A stretch of DNA of 37,265 nt, from the IMG/VR virus record IMGVR_UViG_2731957842_000006. The stretch is one strand, 5' to 3'. How positions within the stretch are numbered: position 1 is the first letter of the stretch; the number at the start of each line of letters is the position of its first letter. The notes under the pieces are model-generated. The model had not been told where the DNA came from and made no database searches. It saw nothing but the letters and a program-made list of their open reading frames with translations. This document shows, one piece after another, positions 19,128 through 32,438 of this stretch. The stretch is from a virus (lineage: Duplodnaviria > Heunggongvirae > Uroviricota > Caudoviricetes). The translations under genes were made by a program, and so were the position numbers.

Positions 19128-19379
19128 TTAGTCCTGATTTTTATCCACCCTGAGTAGTTCACGCAGGGCAAAGGCATCCCCTTTTCTGGCAAGCTTAAAC
19201 AATGCCGCCCGTAGTTCGGCTTCACCTTTCGCTCTGCCCTTACGGATGGATGCGTAAAAATCTGTCATTGCTTCCCGATTTTCTTTCAGTCGGTTCAGAT
19301 CAACATCCAGAACGTCAGCGATTTGTTGTGCAGTCATCCGGCACGCTGCCAGAGACTCTACTTTCGAATACGGAATCAT
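19128..19379 (-). CDS. small HTH-like protein (83 aa)
   Basis: GGGGGTGA Shine-Dalgarno before the ATG at 19379; helix-turn-helix-like MTAQQIADVLDVD; overlaps the upstream gene end by 65 nt. Confidence 0.35.
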   Translation of the reverse strand: MIPYSKVESLAACRMTAQQIADVLDVDLNRLKENREAMTDFYASIRKGRAKGEAELRAALFKLARKGDAFALRELLRVDKNQD

Positions 19380-20247
19380 TTGTCACCCCCATTGATATGC
19401 AGGGTGTCTTCTTCCTGTATTTTTCGTGAAGGATTTTTACTGCAGCGTTGTTCCAGGTGACCTGATGGTGAATGCGTTTATGGCTGGCACCCATCAGTGA
19501 GATTTTTACGCACGACGGCGCATACATGACGGAGTAAAAACTTTTAACGTAGGTTCCGGAGTCCAGATACAGCTCGGTCATTCCGCCGCTGTTTTTCTGC
19601 GTCTGTTTCTGCCCTAACTGGACAGCACCGATCGTCATAAACAATTCACCACAGCGACCAAGATTCGTATACGTATTCACATCCTCGTTAATGCGCCCCA
19701 TGAATGAGAACGGTCGATCAACGGAACAGATAAAACTGTTCATTGCCTTGCGTTTCACCCACGAAGCATGGCCGCCATTGTCACCAAGAAAATCTCCGCC
19801 CTGCGACATAGCGATGGAAAGCGCAGGTATTGATTCGTAGTACGCCAGCATTTCAGAAAGGATCGCATCCAGTTTTCTTATCGGGAAATAGGCCTGGTCA
19901 TAGTTGCGATCCACCCGAAACTGGAACTCGTGATAATCATCATCGAGCTGAATGAAGTATTTACACCCGACCAGTTTTGCCAGGTCGAAACAGGCATTAC
20001 GGGCGTAAAAAATTGATCGGCGGTCACCGAAATTATCGGCTTCGTCAAAACGACTGGCGATATCGGCTTTGGAAAACACCAGCACCTGTTCACTAAATTC
20101 AGCTATGTAGTGATGCCGTGTATTATCTTCATCATCAACAACGATAAAAATTTTCCCGGTATAGCCAGCACGACGCAACGTCCGGTAAGTCAGAACTTTG
20201 TCCGGTCGCCCGTGAGTCAGAATAAAGGCGCAAAAATCATCACGCAT
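19315..20247 (-). CDS. hypothetical protein (about 310 aa) with DxD-like acidic motifs (IVVDDED, QLDDDYHEF); possible nucleotide-sugar-binding fold
   Basis: Start at 20247 preceded by GGAGGAGGAGGA, which doubles as the Glu-run at the end of the ParB-like gene; function is inference only. Confidence 0.45.
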   Translation of the reverse strand: MRDDFCAFILTHGRPDKVLTYRTLRRAGYTGKIFIVVDDEDNTRHHYIAEFSEQVLVFSKADIASRFDEADNFGDRRSIFYARNACFDLAKLVGCKYFIQLDDDYHEFQFRVDRNYDQAYFPIRKLDAILSEMLAYYESIPALSIAMSQGGDFLGDNGGHASWVKRKAMNSFICSVDRPFSFMGRINEDVNTYTNLGRCGELFMTIGAVQLGQKQTQKNSGGMTELYLDSGTYVKSFYSVMYAPSCVKISLMGASHKRIHHQVTWNNAAVKILHEKYRKKTPCISMGVTNDSVFESRVSGSVPDDCTTNR

Positions 20248-21031
20248 ATTCCTCCTCCTCCCCGCCATGCATGATCTCCACCATACGCTGCGTCATCCGG
20301 ACAAATCCATTTTCAATAGCCTGCTGATAATCAATGATCACCAGCGCCGATTCCTCGAAAAAGCACTGAATTTCAGCGGGGGCGTGAGCGTAATAGTCCG
20401 CAATTCTGCTGAAATTAAACACCGTATGACGTTCTGCCGCACACAGGAGGAATTTCTCAATATCAGGATCAAGGGACGCCGAACGTATCCGGCTGATCAA
20501 CTCCTGAGTTTTCGTATCGTCGTACAGTTCACTGATATCTGGTTTATCGCCCGACGGCTCATAAACAGGCGTATCAATTTTCGTCGTGTACGGTTCCTCC
20601 TCATTTCCTGTACCGGGCAAAACATCCGTCAACAGTTCATCAATTTCTGTCGGGCTGAATCCTGTCAGGGAGATATCAAAATCAGCATTGATTAGGTCCG
20701 ACAGCTCCATCCGTAACAGATCTTCATCCCAGCCAGCATTCATCGGCAGGCGATTATCTGCCAGGCGGTACGCCTTTTTCTGATCATCCGTCAGACCAGA
20801 CAGAACAATAACCGGAACCGAATCCATTTTGAGCGCCTCAGCCGCCATAACGCGACCGTGACCAGCAATAATTTCGCCCTTTTCATCAATCAGCACTGGA
20901 TTAGTCCAGCCGAATTGCTTAATGCTTTCTACCAGTTGTGCCACCTGCTCAGGGCTGTGTGTCCTGGCATTGTGTGCATACGGAGACAGTTCTTGTAACG
21001 GGCGATAGACGATCTTCAATTTCTCGCTCAT
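20240..21031 (-). CDS. ParB-like nuclease-domain protein (263 aa)
   Basis: N-terminal ParB/Srx-like segment (LSPYAHNARTHSPEQVAQLVESIKQFGWTNPVLIDEKGEIIAGHGRVMAA); GAGG Shine-Dalgarno. Confidence 0.7.
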   Translation of the reverse strand: MSEKLKIVYRPLQELSPYAHNARTHSPEQVAQLVESIKQFGWTNPVLIDEKGEIIAGHGRVMAAEALKMDSVPVIVLSGLTDDQKKAYRLADNRLPMNAGWDEDLLRMELSDLINADFDISLTGFSPTEIDELLTDVLPGTGNEEEPYTTKIDTPVYEPSGDKPDISELYDDTKTQELISRIRSASLDPDIEKFLLCAAERHTVFNFSRIADYYAHAPAEIQCFFEESALVIIDYQQAIENGFVRMTQRMVEIMHGGEEEEYA

Positions 21032-21632: not shown

Positions 21633-22016
21633 TCAGCGTTTCAACTGAAAGTGAGGTCCGTCTTTCAGTGTTTTCCAGTCCCCGCCCCATTCGATGGCAG
21701 TTCCCAGCTCTGCGGCAGCCTGCTTAAATGCCTGCGCGATTTTCTCGTACAGAGGCCAGTCCCATGACACCTGGCTACCAATGTAGGCAACAACATCCAC
21801 CGCATCACCTGTCAGGTGGCGGCTGTTCATGGTCTGGCTCTTGCCTTCTGCAACCAGCTGTTTCTGGCGATACTTACTGCGCAGGCCTTCCGTAATACCG
21901 AAATCAACCTCCGTCAGCTCCAGCGCACGGCGAACGACAGCAACCAGCTGTGGTTTGACGCCCTCCAGATTTTTTTCACTGCGACGGCTGAATCTGAATT
22001 TACCCGACATATTCAC
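21633..22016 (-). CDS. endolysin, peptidase M15-like (L-alanyl-D-glutamate peptidase type)
   Basis: 127-aa ORF with SRHLTGDAVDV and DGPHFQL motifs; last gene of a holin-membrane protein-endolysin arrangement. Confidence 0.7.
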   Translation of the reverse strand: MNMSGKFRFSRRSEKNLEGVKPQLVAVVRRALELTEVDFGITEGLRSKYRQKQLVAEGKSQTMNSRHLTGDAVDVVAYIGSQVSWDWPLYEKIAQAFKQAAAELGTAIEWGGDWKTLKDGPHFQLKR

Positions 22017-23112: not shown

Positions 23113-23187
<75 letters not shown>

Positions 23188-23474
23188 ATACTGTGCTGGC
23201 CCCCGGAATAACACGAATTACCAAGAGAGCCCGCACTGGTCTTTCCGGTGGCAAACAGCACCCCTGCTAACATAAAAGATAAACACCTTCCAGACGCAAA
23301 AATACTAACAACTGTTTTTCAGATATCCAAAATATATTTGGTTTTTATTTTTGAAAATATGTATACATATGTATCATAAATATACAAGCCATATCATAAC
23401 CGAATTAAAAATCTTTAGTTATCTCTTTTGCCGTCTGATCACCACCCACCGGCAGCTGAGAATTCCGGCACACA

Positions 23475-23537
23475 ATGAAAAAGGCCCGCCAGGGCGAGCC
23501 ATAAAAACTGAATAAAAAAACCGCCCGGGGCGGCGGC
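23475..23537 (-). repeat. copy B of the roughly 66-bp repeat with terminator hairpin (CCGCC-CGG-GGCGG plus T-run, 23512-23536)
   Basis: Direct repeat of 22795-22860 at high identity; located downstream of the tRNA-like pseudogene. Confidence 0.6.
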
Positions 23538-23902
23538 TAAAACGATAAAAGGACACAATATTATAATGATTATTGGGTTTGGGGCATCGGGTGCCTCCCG
23601 AAGTATTCCACTTTACGTGGATACTGTGGTTTCCCGCTAAACCGACTCTATAAACCACCCTCGCACTGAGGAACGCCCCAATTCATGTTTTCCGACACAG
23701 AGATGGCGCATCACTGGTTACTCCACGCTAAATCCTGCTTCCTTTCGTGGGCAATGCGCCATTTCTGTGTCATAAAAAATACAGCACTGAGTCTGTAACC
23801 GATCTCCATTACAGAATGAGGGACGATAAAGGTATTAAAGAGATCTGTTCCTCACGAAAACCGCCAGTGCTGTAAAAACTTGTCCAAAAAACAATGAAGT
23901 TG

Positions 23903-23976
23903 CGGAGAACAGGAATCGAACCGGCATTACCAACCTAAGGCTGATGTAATAACCACTATACGATACCTGCATATAG
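23903..23976 (-). pseudogene. degenerate tRNA-Gly-like sequence (acceptor and anticodon stems do not pair)
   Basis: Shares D-arm and T-loop (GGTTCGATTCC) with the tRNA at 23113-23187 but the anticodon arm is rearranged and acceptor halves are not complementary. Confidence 0.3.
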
Positions 23977-24491
23977 AGCAGGCCTCCGTAACCACAATAA
24001 TGACACTGATACCGATAACAGCCCTTCATTATGATTAAACGGATGCCAGCAATGACCCGCAAGACAGCGGGTAACACCCCTGTGAACAGAAACTTGCTGC
24101 CTTTCGGGTCGAGAGTAATATTACCGATAATTTATATGACATCAAAAACTAATTAGTTTTCATATTTAAACATATGTATAAATATGTATCAGACGCATAC
24201 AATTTATGTTATTTCATCCAGACTTCTGATTTCTCACAGGAAATTGCGAAAAAAAACAACATAAAAATGAACAAATTGGGAGTACGCTAACTCCGTTGTC
24301 GCAATAAATCACAGTAAGCTCTTCAGAAATAACAGTTCACAAGACTTACATCAACAGTAGTTTTTGTAATGATTAATGTTAACTGTAGCGTTGAAAAGAA
24401 AAGTTTTGACGAAATATGGTGAACTAACAGAGCCTAACGAATAGCCCTATTACGCCGAGCTAATAGCGCTGCCAGCTAAACTTGCATGGAA

Positions 24492-24568
24492 TGGTCCGCC
24501 ACCGAGGACTCGAACCTCGCACAATCAACTTAGAAGGTTGATGCTCTATCCCGATGAGCTAGTGGCGG
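24492..24568 (-). tRNA. tRNA-Arg (anticodon UCU, reads AGA)
   Basis: Hand-folded 77-nt cloverleaf: acceptor CCGCCAC/GTGGCGG, anticodon arm TCAAC-CTTCTAA-GTTGA, T-arm CGAGG-TTCGAGT-CCTCG, encoded CCA. Confidence 0.85.
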
Positions 24569-24570
24569 AA

Positions 24571-24646
24571 TGGTGGCCCTTGCTGGATTTGAACCAGCGA
24601 CCTGGCGATTATGAGTCGCTCGCTCTCACCACTGAGCTAAAGGGCC
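24571..24646 (-). tRNA. tRNA with CAU anticodon, Ile2 (lysidine-type, reads AUA)-like; could alternatively be Met
   Basis: 76-nt cloverleaf GGCCCTT ... anticodon loop CTCATAA ... T-arm GCTGG-TTCAAAT-CCAGC ... AAGGGCC-A-CCA; resembles ileX-type tRNAs; 2 nt from the tRNA-Arg. Confidence 0.8.
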
Positions 24647-26291: not shown

Positions 26292-26412
26292 TCAACAGAA
26301 TCCTTCCAGATAAATAGCACCCCCCTGTTCGGGGTCCATCCCTCTTCTCCCTGCGCGCTACTTAAGTATTTTTGATTCTATTCCGGCATCGTCCATAACT
26401 TCAAACGTATTG

Positions 26413-26444
26413 AAAATAAAAACAAAAACCCGCCGAAGCGGGTT
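26413..26444 (-). terminator. intrinsic terminator downstream of hok (AACCCGC-TTCG-GCGGGTT followed by TTTTTGTTTTT)
   Basis: Perfect 7-bp stem with U-tract about 70 nt after the hok stop. Confidence 0.45.
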
Positions 26445-26512
26445 AAGTGCGGGTGCGTTGAAGATGCCTGACACATCATAGGCGGCGAGGGATTTCTCCC
26501 TCGCCTGGTCTC

Positions 26513-26668
26513 TTACTCCTCAGGTTCGTAAGCTGTGAAGACAGCGACCTCCGTCTGGCCGGTTCGGATTCGTACCTCGCAGAGGTCTTTCCTCGTTACC
26601 AGTGCCGTCACTATGACGGTTAAACAGATGACGATCAGGGCGATTAACATCGCCTTTTGCTGCTTCAT
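26513..26668 (-). CDS. hok: Hok/Gef-family type I toxin (51 aa)
   Basis: MKQQKAMLIALIVICLTVIVTALVTRKDLCEVRIRTGQTEVAVFTAYEPEE: single transmembrane helix plus conserved C-terminal Hok motif; long leader with hairpins; track ORF 26513..26725 is an in-frame extension. Confidence 0.8.
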   Translation of the reverse strand: MKQQKAMLIALIVICLTVIVTALVTRKDLCEVRIRTGQTEVAVFTAYEPEE

Positions 26669-26878
26669 AGCCTGCTTCTCCTTGCCTTTCGGCACGTAAG
26701 AGGCTAACCTACATTTGTGAGACATAGATTGGGCCTCAGATTAATGTTAAGCGTCTTGCAGGACGCGTAATGTTAACTGGGGCTTTTCTCTATCTGCCTT
26801 TGGTGTTCATGCCCGAGGCAGATAGCCTCAAGCACCCGCAGCAATTCTACTTAACTCTCCTTTTCCCGCAAACCGTTT

Positions 26879-26962
26879 TTATCCCCAGCGGCAAATCGAA
26901 TACACCACCAGCGCCACCGCCATCGCAATTCCTACCGTGGTGAATGCCTCAGGCCGGGTCAT
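26879..26962 (-). CDS. small hydrophobic peptide (27 aa, MTRPEAFTTVGIAMAVALVVYSICRWG)
   Basis: AGGAGG Shine-Dalgarno 6 nt upstream; ATG overlaps the upstream stop (ATGA); not in the ORF track. Confidence 0.3.
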   Translation of the reverse strand: MTRPEAFTTVGIAMAVALVVYSICRWG

Positions 26963-27663
26963 TGATTCACCTCCTGCGGCGGTTCTGGTAGCGGCATCCA
27001 GTGAGTTGAGCTCTCTACTTCGACGCCGTCTTTGTCTACAAAAGCCATCTTATTCCCGCCACGAGTGGGGCAAAAAACCTTATCCCAGGAACCGGGGAAT
27101 ACATTCCCGAGATCATCGAGAAGAATCACATCGCAATATTCAGCAGGAACTGCATCACTACAGCTTATCCAGCCAGCCGGAGTTCCCGGAGAGCTGGTTG
27201 ACGTTTCCGAGATTTCCCGAAAATTGTTGGTTGACGAATTCTTACTTTCCCGAAAGTTTTCGGCCTGAAGCATGGCGACACGGCAGGCGTTCCAGCCATC
27301 AGCATATGTTTCAGTTACACCGTCGAGATGGCAGGTAAGCAAATCCATTTCATCAGGCACTACCATCGCTGGCGGCGCTGCGTAAAGCGGTGTTATTTCT
27401 GCCCGAAAATCACCTACTTTATGCAGTCGCACCCACCGTTCGATTTCTGCTTTGTCAGAATTCATAAGGGTGAACGTATTACATTCATGGTTAATTTGCG
27501 TGAAGGTTGCCTTCCACGCCACCGGCTCTGCTTCCAGTGATGCCAGTGCAATTTTGAATAACTCGCCCTCTACCTGCGCCATCCCTGAATTTGAGTGGCA
27601 TTTCGCAATCGCTATTTTTAATTTGGCTTCTTCGATTAATTGCTCTTTGGTTAATTCAGTCAT
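26959..27663 (-). CDS. hypothetical phage protein (234 aa)
   Basis: Complete ORF in the region between replication and late genes; no family assigned. Confidence 0.45.
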   Translation of the reverse strand: MTELTKEQLIEEAKLKIAIAKCHSNSGMAQVEGELFKIALASLEAEPVAWKATFTQINHECNTFTLMNSDKAEIERWVRLHKVGDFRAEITPLYAAPPAMVVPDEMDLLTCHLDGVTETYADGWNACRVAMLQAENFRESKNSSTNNFREISETSTSSPGTPAGWISCSDAVPAEYCDVILLDDLGNVFPGSWDKVFCPTRGGNKMAFVDKDGVEVESSTHWMPLPEPPQEVNQ

Positions 27664-31870: not shown

Positions 31871-31974
31871 AAGGGTCACCTTAGTAATGTTCGCCAAAAT
31901 ATTAACTATACTAATTTAAATGATCAATACTTATATCAGTTTGAGATTATGAGCTGTGTTCATAAGATGGTGGT
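31871..31974. promoter_or_regulatory. immunity-region divergent promoter/operator interval between the Cro-like and repressor genes
   Basis: About 100-bp AT-rich intergenic region between divergently transcribed HTH regulator genes. Confidence 0.35.
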
Positions 31975-32438
31975 ATGAGAAGAAAACGCGAAGAAATCGC
32001 ATCGCCAGAAGCTACGCAGCGTCTACGCGGAATCTGGGATGCAAAAAAAGAGAGCTCAAATTGACTCAGGAGCTTGCTGCCGAGCTAATGGGCTTTGAGA
32101 CGCAATCTACGGTTAGCCACTATCTCAACGGAAAGGCTCCACTTAACACTGATGCGGCATTAAAATTCGCAGTATTGCTAAGAGTTAAGCCTGAAGACTT
32201 GAGGCCTGATTTAGCTGATCTGATGAATTACGTCCGTTCCTCTGGAACTTATGACGAAAGTTTCGAAGGCGAAGGGTGGCGGATGGTTAACAAGCAACAA
32301 GCTGATTTACTGGATCTTTTTGATATCCTCCCCGAATCAGAAAAAGCAAAACTAATCGAAAGGCTTAAAGGCCAGAATGAACTCTACAAAGAAGCGTTTG
32401 AAAATATGCTGGCAGCTCAGAAACGCATAAAGAAATAG
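31956..32438 (+). CDS. racR: CI/RacR-like HTH repressor (about 155-160 aa); N-terminus ambiguous
   Basis: HTH region LKLTQELAAELMGFETQSTVSHYLNG; main frame has no ATG before the HTH (track start is a GTG at 31956); an ATG at 31975 opens a second frame (MRRKREEIASPEATQRLRGIWDAKK) that joins the main frame if A7 at 32043-32049 were A8. Confidence 0.55.
   Translation: MFIRWWYEKKTRRNRIARSYAASTRNLGCKKRELKLTQELAAELMGFETQSTVSHYLNGKAPLNTDAALKFAVLLRVKPEDLRPDLADLMNYVRSSGTYDESFEGEGWRMVNKQQADLLDLFDILPESEKAKLIERLKGQNELYKEAFENMLAAQKRIKK

Follow-up and report, generated by a model that had tools for sequence, protein, structure and literature searches.

The closest described relative of the locus analyzed here is hokW–sokW of the Stx2 phages 933W (GenBank AF125520) and Sp5 (Takada et al. 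2021, PMC8621323). In Sp5, hokW is toxic and is neutralized by sokW expressed from its own promoter, a Sok promoter mutant restores toxicity, and HokW is located in the inner membrane. The reported role of this copy is to aid lysis and phage release upon induction, not post-segregational killing, and Hok action upon prophage induction approximately doubles phage release. The second point of reference is hok/sok of plasmid R1, to whose Hok protein HokW is only 44% identical (PMC8621323). Here, we describe a locus of this kind in a stretch of 37,265 nucleotides (nt) of tailed-phage DNA (IMG/VR record IMGVR_UViG_2731957842_000006), referred to in the following as the window. Its minus strand very probably carries two independent modules arranged head to tail: a complete hok/sok locus with its promoter (26418–26871) and a 27-codon gene for a small membrane peptide with its own Shine–Dalgarno (SD) sequence (26879–26975).

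A pairwise alignment with the mokW/hokW/sokW region of 933W (AF125520) was gap-free over 566 nt and gave 94% nucleotide identity. The architecture is the same as in 933W and Sp5, and the likeness runs from the 27-codon open reading frame (ORF), which is present but unannotated upstream of hokW in 933W, through to the fold-back inhibitory (fbi) element. No difference is seen in the hok and sok promoters, the tac stem, the hok SD or the first 40 residues of Hok. The C-terminus of Hok reads TAYEPEE in the window and VDYESEK in HokW; because of these four differing residues, the window protein has the HokD/RelF sequence. The first six mok codons differ from 933W at six positions, and the 5′ tail of Sok therefore differs at the same number of positions. 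A stem-loop just 3′ of the hok stop codon (GGCGAGGGAGAAATCCCTCGCC, 26485–26506, minus strand) differs from 933W at several positions in both arms; by visual inspection of the alignment, these differences appear to leave the pairing intact, in keeping with a role as the protective hairpin at the 3′ end of processed hok mRNA. Beyond fbi, the 3′ end is unlike that of 933W and has a strong terminator of its own. The genomic place differs as well: the window locus lies between replication genes and tRNA and lysis genes, whereas that of 933W occupies the far prophage end, with attP between it and int.

Compared through Rfam and the two papers (PMC9841398, PMC8621323), the locus also resembles hok/sok of plasmid R1: the mok and hok frames overlap, mok has GAGG as its SD, tac pairs with fbi over a long range, ucb serves as an anti-SD box, the Sok promoter sits inside mok, and the Rfam model is matched over its full length. 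The window locus is phage-borne and that of R1 plasmid-borne. Taken together, 26418–26837 on the minus strand is a complete hok/sok type I toxin–antitoxin locus of the hokW/hokD group. This part is already known: it copies a locus that the GenBank record of 933W annotates and that the 2021 study tested.

The toxin gene (26513–26668, minus strand) encodes 51 amino acids (aa; MKQQKAMLIALIVICLTVIVTALVTRKDLCEVRIRTGQTEVAVFTAYEPEE), the size expected for a Hok/Gef-domain toxin. Its product matches Pfam PF01848 HOK_GEF with E = 3e-23 (81.6 bits against a cut-off of 22) and PHROG 251, “MokW-like host killing”, with E = 8e-33; the NCBIfam Hok models also match, with scores below their strict cut-offs. 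An exact-sequence look-up returned HokD, under a UniRef name with RepID HOKD_ECOLI, and the 701 bp from 26300 to 27000 are 100% identical to DNA of E. coli RM11911, where RefSeq labels the gene hokD. As is typical of the Hok/Sok type I family, a 70-aa mok frame (26513–26725, minus strand), found in the ORF list and corresponding to the mokW annotation of 933W, overlaps hok and ends at its stop codon; it has its own SD, GAGG (26737–26734, minus strand), 9 nt before the mok ATG. An intrinsic terminator of the hok mRNA occupies 26418–26444 on the minus strand, consisting of a stem (26444–26427, AACCCGCTTCGGCGGGTT) followed by TTTTGTTTTT. A preliminary description of this DNA, made from the letters and an ORF list, had proposed a hok toxin with a structured leader and a terminator, and all three are borne out by these data and by those on the leader below.

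A candidate hok promoter (26844–26871, minus strand) begins 8 nt past the stop codon of the 27-codon ORF, with a −35 element TTGCGG at 26871–26866, a 16-nt spacer and a −10 element TAGAAT at 26849–26844. It is identical in 933W and is kept in hokW-type loci whose farther upstream DNA is unrelated. Initiation would be at about 26837, where position 1 of the Rfam model also falls, giving a predicted full-length hok mRNA of about 420 nt (26418–26837, minus strand) that runs from GGGUGCUUGAGG to the T-run of the terminator. The model in question, RF01794 “sok”, was the sole non-tRNA Rfam match in a scan of the whole window, scoring 117.7 bits against a gathering score of 59, with model positions 1–157 aligned to 26837–26663 on the minus strand. 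Since the match shares the strand of hok and the consensus terminates in the hok SD and AUG, RF01794 describes the hok mRNA leader and not the antisense RNA. The family is named “sok antitoxin”, and taking the strand of Sok from this match would give the wrong strand.

The leader has the structural elements of the hok/gef family. In the RF01794 consensus, an outer stem joins the first 8 nt (GGGUGCUU) to AAAGCCCC, and the long inner stem corresponds to a 10-bp hairpin. The tac stem region (26779–26837, minus strand) was delimited from this consensus structure, from folds of the full-length and 3′-truncated mRNA and from the model in PMC9841398. Its 5′ tac element (26837–26826) has two alternative partners, the 3′ fbi element or the ucb/anti-SD box AAAGCCCC (26785–26779). 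The hairpin is a perfect stem of CTATCTGCCT and AGGCAGATAG (26790–26799 and 26816–26825); the stem is seen when the full-length mRNA is folded in silico, and its counterpart in the Rfam model is the long first stem. In the hok mRNA it makes up the tip of the 5′ tac stem, a structure described for the translatable form of R1 hok mRNA (PMC9841398). The hairpin noted previously thus exists, although its true position, 26790–26825, is one base off the one given.

Folding of the 420-nt transcript (26837–26418) gave a minimum free energy (MFE) of −172 kcal/mol, with z = −8.2 against shuffled sequences. In the MFE structure, nt 1–12 pair with nt 375–387, which is the tac/fbi fold-back, fbi being CUUCAACGCACCC at 26451–26463 (minus strand), and the mok SD is paired with the C-run of ucb. 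When the 3′ end was removed before nt 372, and fbi with it, the 5′ end refolded locally. The open form, in which tac pairs with ucb and the mok SD is free, is supported by the Rfam consensus structure rather than by MFE folding.

The putative Sok promoter lies on the plus strand at 26682–26710, with a −35 element TTGCCT (26682–87), a 17-nt spacer and a −10 element TAACCT (26705–10), all identical in 933W and Sp5. The predicted antisense RNA of about 71 nt (26717–26787, plus strand), with coordinates transferred from the sokW misc_RNA of AF125520, is complementary to the mok SD and start codon. It is predicted to fold (−32.5 kcal/mol, z = −5.2) into a stable hairpin of terminator type, long and bulged, which is preceded by an unpaired 5′ tail and followed by a U-rich one. 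By homology, then, the locus appears to have a Sok gene with its own promoter, as in other members of the hok/gef family. The preliminary description had expected a Sok-like RNA on the plus strand at the 10-bp hairpin; the strand was correct, whereas Sok adjoins the hairpin without overlapping it. Because the hairpin starts about 3 nt past the 3′ end of Sok, it belongs to the 5′ structure of the hok mRNA and not to the antisense gene. The alignment to characterized loci that it suggested located mok, the sok promoter and the fold-back elements. It had named the absence of an antisense promoter or RNA from the leader as a finding that would speak against it; a promoter identical to that of sokW, with its putative Sok, lies at the homologous position. 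In the Sp5 work, primer YO-421 was used for the “pro-less” Sok promoter mutant (PMC8621323); on our reading of its sequence against the wild type, it replaces the TAACCT −10 hexamer of sokW.

On the regulatory model for hok (PMC9841398), a weak promoter would yield a stable hok mRNA of about 420 nt, in which the 5′ tac element is locked to 3′ fbi and the mok ribosome-binding site is sequestered by the ucb anti-SD box. Slow trimming of the 3′ end would let the 5′ end refold into the tac stem, with the 10-bp hairpin at its tip, freeing the mok SD, and Hok would be translated by coupling to mok. The unstable Sok RNA, transcribed from the promoter inside the start of mok, would pair over the mok SD and start codon and block translation; once Sok is lost, Hok would insert into the inner membrane and damage it. 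Toxicity and antitoxin activity have been shown experimentally for the 94%-identical Sp5 locus (PMC8621323), and we infer by analogy that the window copy is active like the R1 and Sp5 systems.

The second module is the 27-codon ORF itself (26879–26962, minus strand; MTRPEAFTTVGIAMAVALVVYSICRWG), which encodes a small hydrophobic peptide predicted to form a single helix. The preliminary description had placed a 27-aa ORF with a perfect AGGAGG just upstream of hok, and it is indeed present: the SD lies at 26970–26975 (minus strand), beyond position 26962 where that description ended, 7 nt before the ATG and inside the end of the upstream gene. The 234-aa product of that gene (26959–27663, minus strand) has DUF551 as its C-terminal domain (Pfam E = 6e-19; PHROG 60/5117), and the TGA of the gene overlaps the ATG of the 27-codon ORF as ATGA. 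At the other end, 41 nt separate the stop codon from the hok transcription start, which places the ORF outside the hok mRNA. The hydrophobic core of the peptide spans residues 7–23, with a maximum 17-residue mean Kyte–Doolittle score of 2.1, and is flanked by WPEA, an acidic motif, on its N-terminal side and by the basic CRWG on its C-terminal side.

To what extent the ORF is conserved was assessed in two samples. Among 80 IMG/VR loci encoding the identical Hok, the upstream regions fall into several unrelated classes, and in the class of the window type the ORF is intact in 15 of the 18 loci. A tblastn search with the peptide against 50,697 phage records found it in 93 of them. Its diverged homologues, at 59–78% aa identity, are all exactly 27 codons long; they include those of BP-4795 (MNWPEAFTAVGVAIAVAFILYSLFRWG), Av-05 (MTWPEAFTTVGVVMAVAFAVYSVCRWG), PhiR12_1 (MSWPDAIVTLGMVFAAAFVVYSICRWG) and 933W (MTWPEAFANVGTVMAVVLVVYSICRWR). 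The preliminary description had also named a lack of conservation in related loci as a finding that would speak against it, and the retention of exactly 27 codons in distant phages answers this point. In complete E. coli genomes, the ORF was found in 1610 of 5426 (≈30%), in up to seven places per genome, and it also occurs on phage-plasmids. A scan of one genome per species returned it only from Escherichia and Shigella, apart from two short contigs assigned to Segatella copri and Xanthomonas pisi, which look like contamination.

Variation among these copies follows the reading frame. The 111 loci with an intact ORF contain 43 distinct 84-nt alleles, besides one further allele of 25 codons with an in-frame deletion of two codons. 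Variable sites are distributed 15/10/22 over the three codon positions, pairwise Nei–Gojobori ratios of non-synonymous to synonymous substitution rates (dN/dS) range from 0.06 to 0.57, and the window and Av-05 alleles differ by 14 synonymous and 6 non-synonymous changes. Nine residues are invariant in the family (M1, P4, A6, G11, A15, Y21, S22, R25 and W26). Nearly every upstream context has a purine-rich GGAGG-type motif 7–12 nt before the ATG. Similarity to other genomes is lost exactly at the ATG or just past the stop codon: many matches in E. coli genomes begin with the A of the ATG (query base 14), and phage matches end at window position 26962 or 26879. Start, SD, stop, length and a synonymous excess, the features by which small coding ORFs are recognized, are thus all retained.

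Codon 3 (26954–26956) varies among the alleles. Most have TGG (W) there; the window and at least 20 of the 111 intact loci have CGG (R), and two broken copies have TAG or TGA. Since the TGG is part of CCTGG, a Dcm methylation site, the change to TAG could be a deamination hot-spot event. In RM11911, RefSeq annotates the DNA upstream of the identical 701 bp as a 56-aa DUF551 protein and frameshifted pseudogene fragments, where the window has the one uninterrupted ORF of 234 aa.

Several observations weigh against our reading. One alternative is that the 27-codon ORF is untranslated and its 84-nt block is kept at the nucleic-acid level; it might, for example, be a linker for recombination where modules meet, belong to the 3′ end of a transcript or be the shadow of an open antisense frame. 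As a control, we considered the antisense frame that shares the wobble position; it is also open and has the same ratio of non-synonymous to synonymous polymorphism (pN/pS). For this reason dN/dS was not used alone as a frame test, and since the substitution pattern by itself leaves the strand unfixed, the choice of frame rests on the start codon, SD, stop codon and mosaic joints. The block is short and G+C-rich. About one in six of the Hok-selected copies is disrupted (3 of 18), by a stop at codon 3 (TGG to TAG or TGA, L034 and L075) or by a 1-nt deletion (L082), and the window allele itself has R for the usual W at this codon. In none of the loci inspected does RefSeq annotate the ORF, and what it lists under the match is always the upstream gene; a few GenBank submitters name the product “bacteriophage protein” or “prophage protein”. 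Searches of Pfam, PHROG and NCBIfam returned no credible family for the peptide (best matches, with E of 0.035–0.15, were taken as chance), a full-text search for peptide strings found no paper that mentions it, and the supplements of the Sakai Ribo-seq small-gene paper contain neither the peptide nor hok. On the side of hok/sok, a simple sigma-70 scan called neither the hok nor the sok promoter, so that both rest on homology; this miss is discounted, since the same sequences work in Sp5. Likewise, MFE folds of the 3′-truncated hok mRNA keep the mok SD paired and do not reproduce the textbook open form.

Against an untranslated block stands the retention of the start, SD spacing, stop and 27-codon length in homologues with as little as 59–78% aa identity and many third-position changes. 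The sole length variant is an in-frame deletion, and the breaks in homology coincide with the ATG and stop of the 27-codon frame and with no landmark of the antisense frame, which has no conserved start. The conserved residues also form a sensible pattern, WPEA followed by a hydrophobic helix and YSxCRWG. We consider it unlikely, on balance, that the ORF is untranslated. That it is a real protein-coding gene is well supported, and its composition suggests an undescribed but unsurprising small phage membrane protein. By analogy only, it resembles KdpF, AcrZ and MgtS, which share a length under 50 aa, one hydrophobic helix, an operon-internal position and similar translation signals; none of them shows a sequence relationship to the phage-encoded peptide, and the match to KdpF (E = 0.035) is below the cut-off and taken as chance. 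We also considered whether the peptide is a C-terminal membrane anchor of DUF551 proteins, since clusters at 90% identity mixed both. This idea was rejected: the clustered DUF551 proteins that were retrieved end in ...PQEVNQ without the peptide, and the genes upstream of the ORF are mutually unrelated.

A different doubt concerns the first module, which might have decayed and fallen silent, like the hok loci on the chromosome of E. coli K-12. Those loci are reportedly inactivated, and K-12 hokD is said to have no upstream regulatory region. The window Hok peptide carries the sequence recorded as HokD, that is, hokD (relF) of the Qin prophage of K-12, prophage regions often decay, and RefSeq marks genes beside the identical stretch of RM11911 as pseudogenes. 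Two related hokW-type loci (L003 and L006) are flanked by rem and ydfU/DUF968, which are neighbors of hokD in K-12 as well. K-12 hokD follows relBE and is not known to have mok, sok or the promoter; the window copy is complete. Both promoters, the mok frame and its SD, tac, ucb, fbi, the Sok hairpin and the terminator are all intact, and the promoters, the hok SD and the N-terminal half of hok are identical to those of the functional Sp5 locus. A decayed relic is, accordingly, improbable.

The preferred reading, of two modules, also implies that the 27-codon gene is not part of hok/sok. This was examined in a survey of the neighbors of 84 loci chosen only by similarity to the peptide. Directly downstream were the hok promoter in 36 loci, one of two intrinsic terminators in 32, DUF4222 in 2 and other sequences, some of them hairpin-like, in 14, leaving 48 loci without hok downstream. 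In E. coli 2022H048 (L179, 1285–1971), the ORF is followed by a ParDE type II module on the opposite strand. Upstream, the ATGA overlap is retained behind at least five unrelated gene ends (...PEPPQEVNQ, ...GLISVEDILR, ...NDLKNIEQEVNR, ...AAMLKKKGMNQ and ...GLSGAERVDRR). The gene before the ORF is of DUF551 or Ea22 type, again with the ATGA overlap, in BP-4795, PhiR12_1 and PhiR5_1. Downstream in BP-4795 and its relatives come DUF4222 or an equivalent, then a small ORF and int; most have an annotated xis, and hok is absent. The virulent phage Av-05 (Vequintavirinae) has the ORF in an 82-nt annotation gap between two packed genes, and in BP-4795 and Av-05 alike the ORF occupies such gaps of 80–90 nt. 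These results indicate that the 27-codon gene is a free-standing mosaic unit of E. coli and Shigella phages, independent of hok.

The site right after the 27-codon stop is a recurrent junction (window position 26879; also L179, L051, L104 and L137). It looks like an insertion hot spot that receives hok/sok, ParDE, DUF4222–xis–int or terminators. In the position that the 27-codon ORF has in the window, 40–140 nt upstream of the hok start, other hokW-type loci in IMG/VR have different small hydrophobic ORFs that are not in the window (L036/L045/L061 and L026/L029/L039). One is a 34-aa ORF (MSDDISLAMEGALAVIAVVGVYCLVVFLMDRLGN), listed as “hypothetical protein” in many E. coli records, and the other has 29 or 30 aa ((M)VLVLKCALAIAAVMAIYCLAVVLMDHLSD). 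Both have a ...YCLxVVLMD(R/H)L(G/S)(N/D) tail; they seem akin to one another, though not clearly to the 27-aa family. No credible Pfam, PHROGs or NCBIfam family was found for either, and a tblastn search of phages with the 34-aa peptide gave weak matches only.

A published clone bears on the same question. The insert of pBAD18-hokW-sokW, defined by primer YO-432 (PMC8621323), begins with GAATCAATGACCTGGCC, at the 27-codon ORF; the primer start GAATCAATGACCTGGCCTGAAGC corresponds to window positions 26968–26946. The clone thus holds the whole ORF without its natural SD, between the arabinose promoter and hokW, and it is not toxic on induction. As the insert starts at the ORF, the gene appears to have been carried along unnoticed; the passages of the paper considered here make no mention of it.

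The preliminary description had suggested that the 27-aa peptide is a second small membrane toxin or a leader peptide controlling hok. The peptide is small and hydrophobic with a strong SD, like type I toxins, its gene lies close to the hok start and directly precedes hok in the 36 loci just mentioned, other hokW loci have small hydrophobic ORFs at the same position, and read-through from the early operon, with no terminator in between, would put both on one transcript. This proposal is not supported, and we regard it as the least probable of the alternatives: the ORF lies outside the hok mRNA as set by the Rfam model and the 933W annotation; its overlap with the upstream stop codon is an operon-internal arrangement, unlike that of type I toxins; more than half of its occurrences are without hok, including Av-05 and the xis–int regions of BP-4795 type, and many hokW loci are without the ORF, so that neither the co-occurrence nor the shared regulated transcript of a leader peptide is seen; a simple and insensitive promoter scan found no promoter-like site on either strand of 26879–27000, where there is also no Rfam match, and thus neither an own promoter nor an antisense promoter or RNA family such as a type I toxin would have; and the Sp5 clone with the ORF region minus the SD is non-toxic while Sok is intact.

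Whichever gene lies upstream, its stop codon shares bases with the ATG of the 27-codon gene. Translation of the 27-codon gene is therefore most likely coupled to that of its upstream neighbor, and the gene would be the last cistron of an accessory block of the early operon. Its product would be an inner-membrane peptide of about 3 kDa with a single helix; going by charge only, the N-terminus would probably face outward and the C-terminal R-W-G inward. Our best guess for its role is a small membrane-embedded modulator.

The position of both modules is best explained by the early rightward operon of a Rac/lambdoid-type prophage. A divergent gene for a helix-turn-helix repressor lies on the plus strand at 31956–32438. 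From there, the order on the minus strand is YdaT, an unassigned 262-aa ORF at the place expected for the replication initiator, a DnaC/IstB-like ATPase, DUF1627, DUF977, small ORFs, the DUF551 gene, the 27-codon gene, hok/sok, a PHROG-340 ORF, a membrane protein, tRNAs and the endolysin. A terminator scan of the minus strand found no terminator-like site from 31985 to the hok terminator at 26444, which is the first such site downstream of the early promoter region. Early transcription on induction could then read through the 27-codon gene into hok and collide with the convergent Sok promoter. As hok is co-oriented with the early operon and no terminator intervenes, such read-through could shut the Sok promoter. 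In Sp5, a rapid loss of SokW RNA that depends on RecA and on induction has been described without an explanation (PMC8621323); read-through, an idea drawn from the layout, could account for this loss. In 933W (AF125520: 1–1400, 58400–61670), the L0142–L0139 block, the 27-codon gene and hokW lie at the right prophage end, on the strand of int, which is at the left end; since attP must be crossed, transcripts running through int, and with them such read-through, would get to hokW there only after excision and circularization.

Farther along the window, a tRNA cluster spans 23115–24646 on the minus strand, comprising tRNA-Gly(TCC) at 23115–23187, tRNA-Arg(TCT) at 24492–24568 and a tRNA with a CAT anticodon at 24571–24646; in a related prophage, one tRNA is labeled tRNA-Ile by RefSeq. 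A borderline Rfam tRNA match at 23901–23970 (31.8 bits against 29) is not reported by ARAGORN. The gene for the Peptidase_M15_4 endolysin (21633–22016, minus strand) is 0.6 kb from two adjacent minus-strand ORFs at 19315–21031, which have matches to PF20691, the TET-associated glycosyltransferase (E = 1e-33), and to a ParB N-terminal domain and may form a prophage DNA-modification module.

The hok/sok locus adds nothing new in itself, and the new value lies in the unannotated 27-codon gene and the read-through idea. Tentatively, we combine three elements: a phage micro-protein family not described before, a marker of accessory-block boundaries and insertion hot spots, and a shut-off of Sok that follows from the layout. 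That all three hold jointly is possible but clearly less probable than the two-module arrangement. The distribution suggests that such a family belongs to temperate phages of E. coli and Shigella and to at least one virulent phage, Av-05, and the ORF may mark the 3′ boundary of accessory blocks in the early operon. If true, read-through gives a testable cause for the release of Hok only upon prophage induction. The 27-codon gene, conserved in about one-third of complete E. coli genomes and missed by standard annotation, Pfam, PHROG and NCBIfam, is a ready candidate for small-protein studies.

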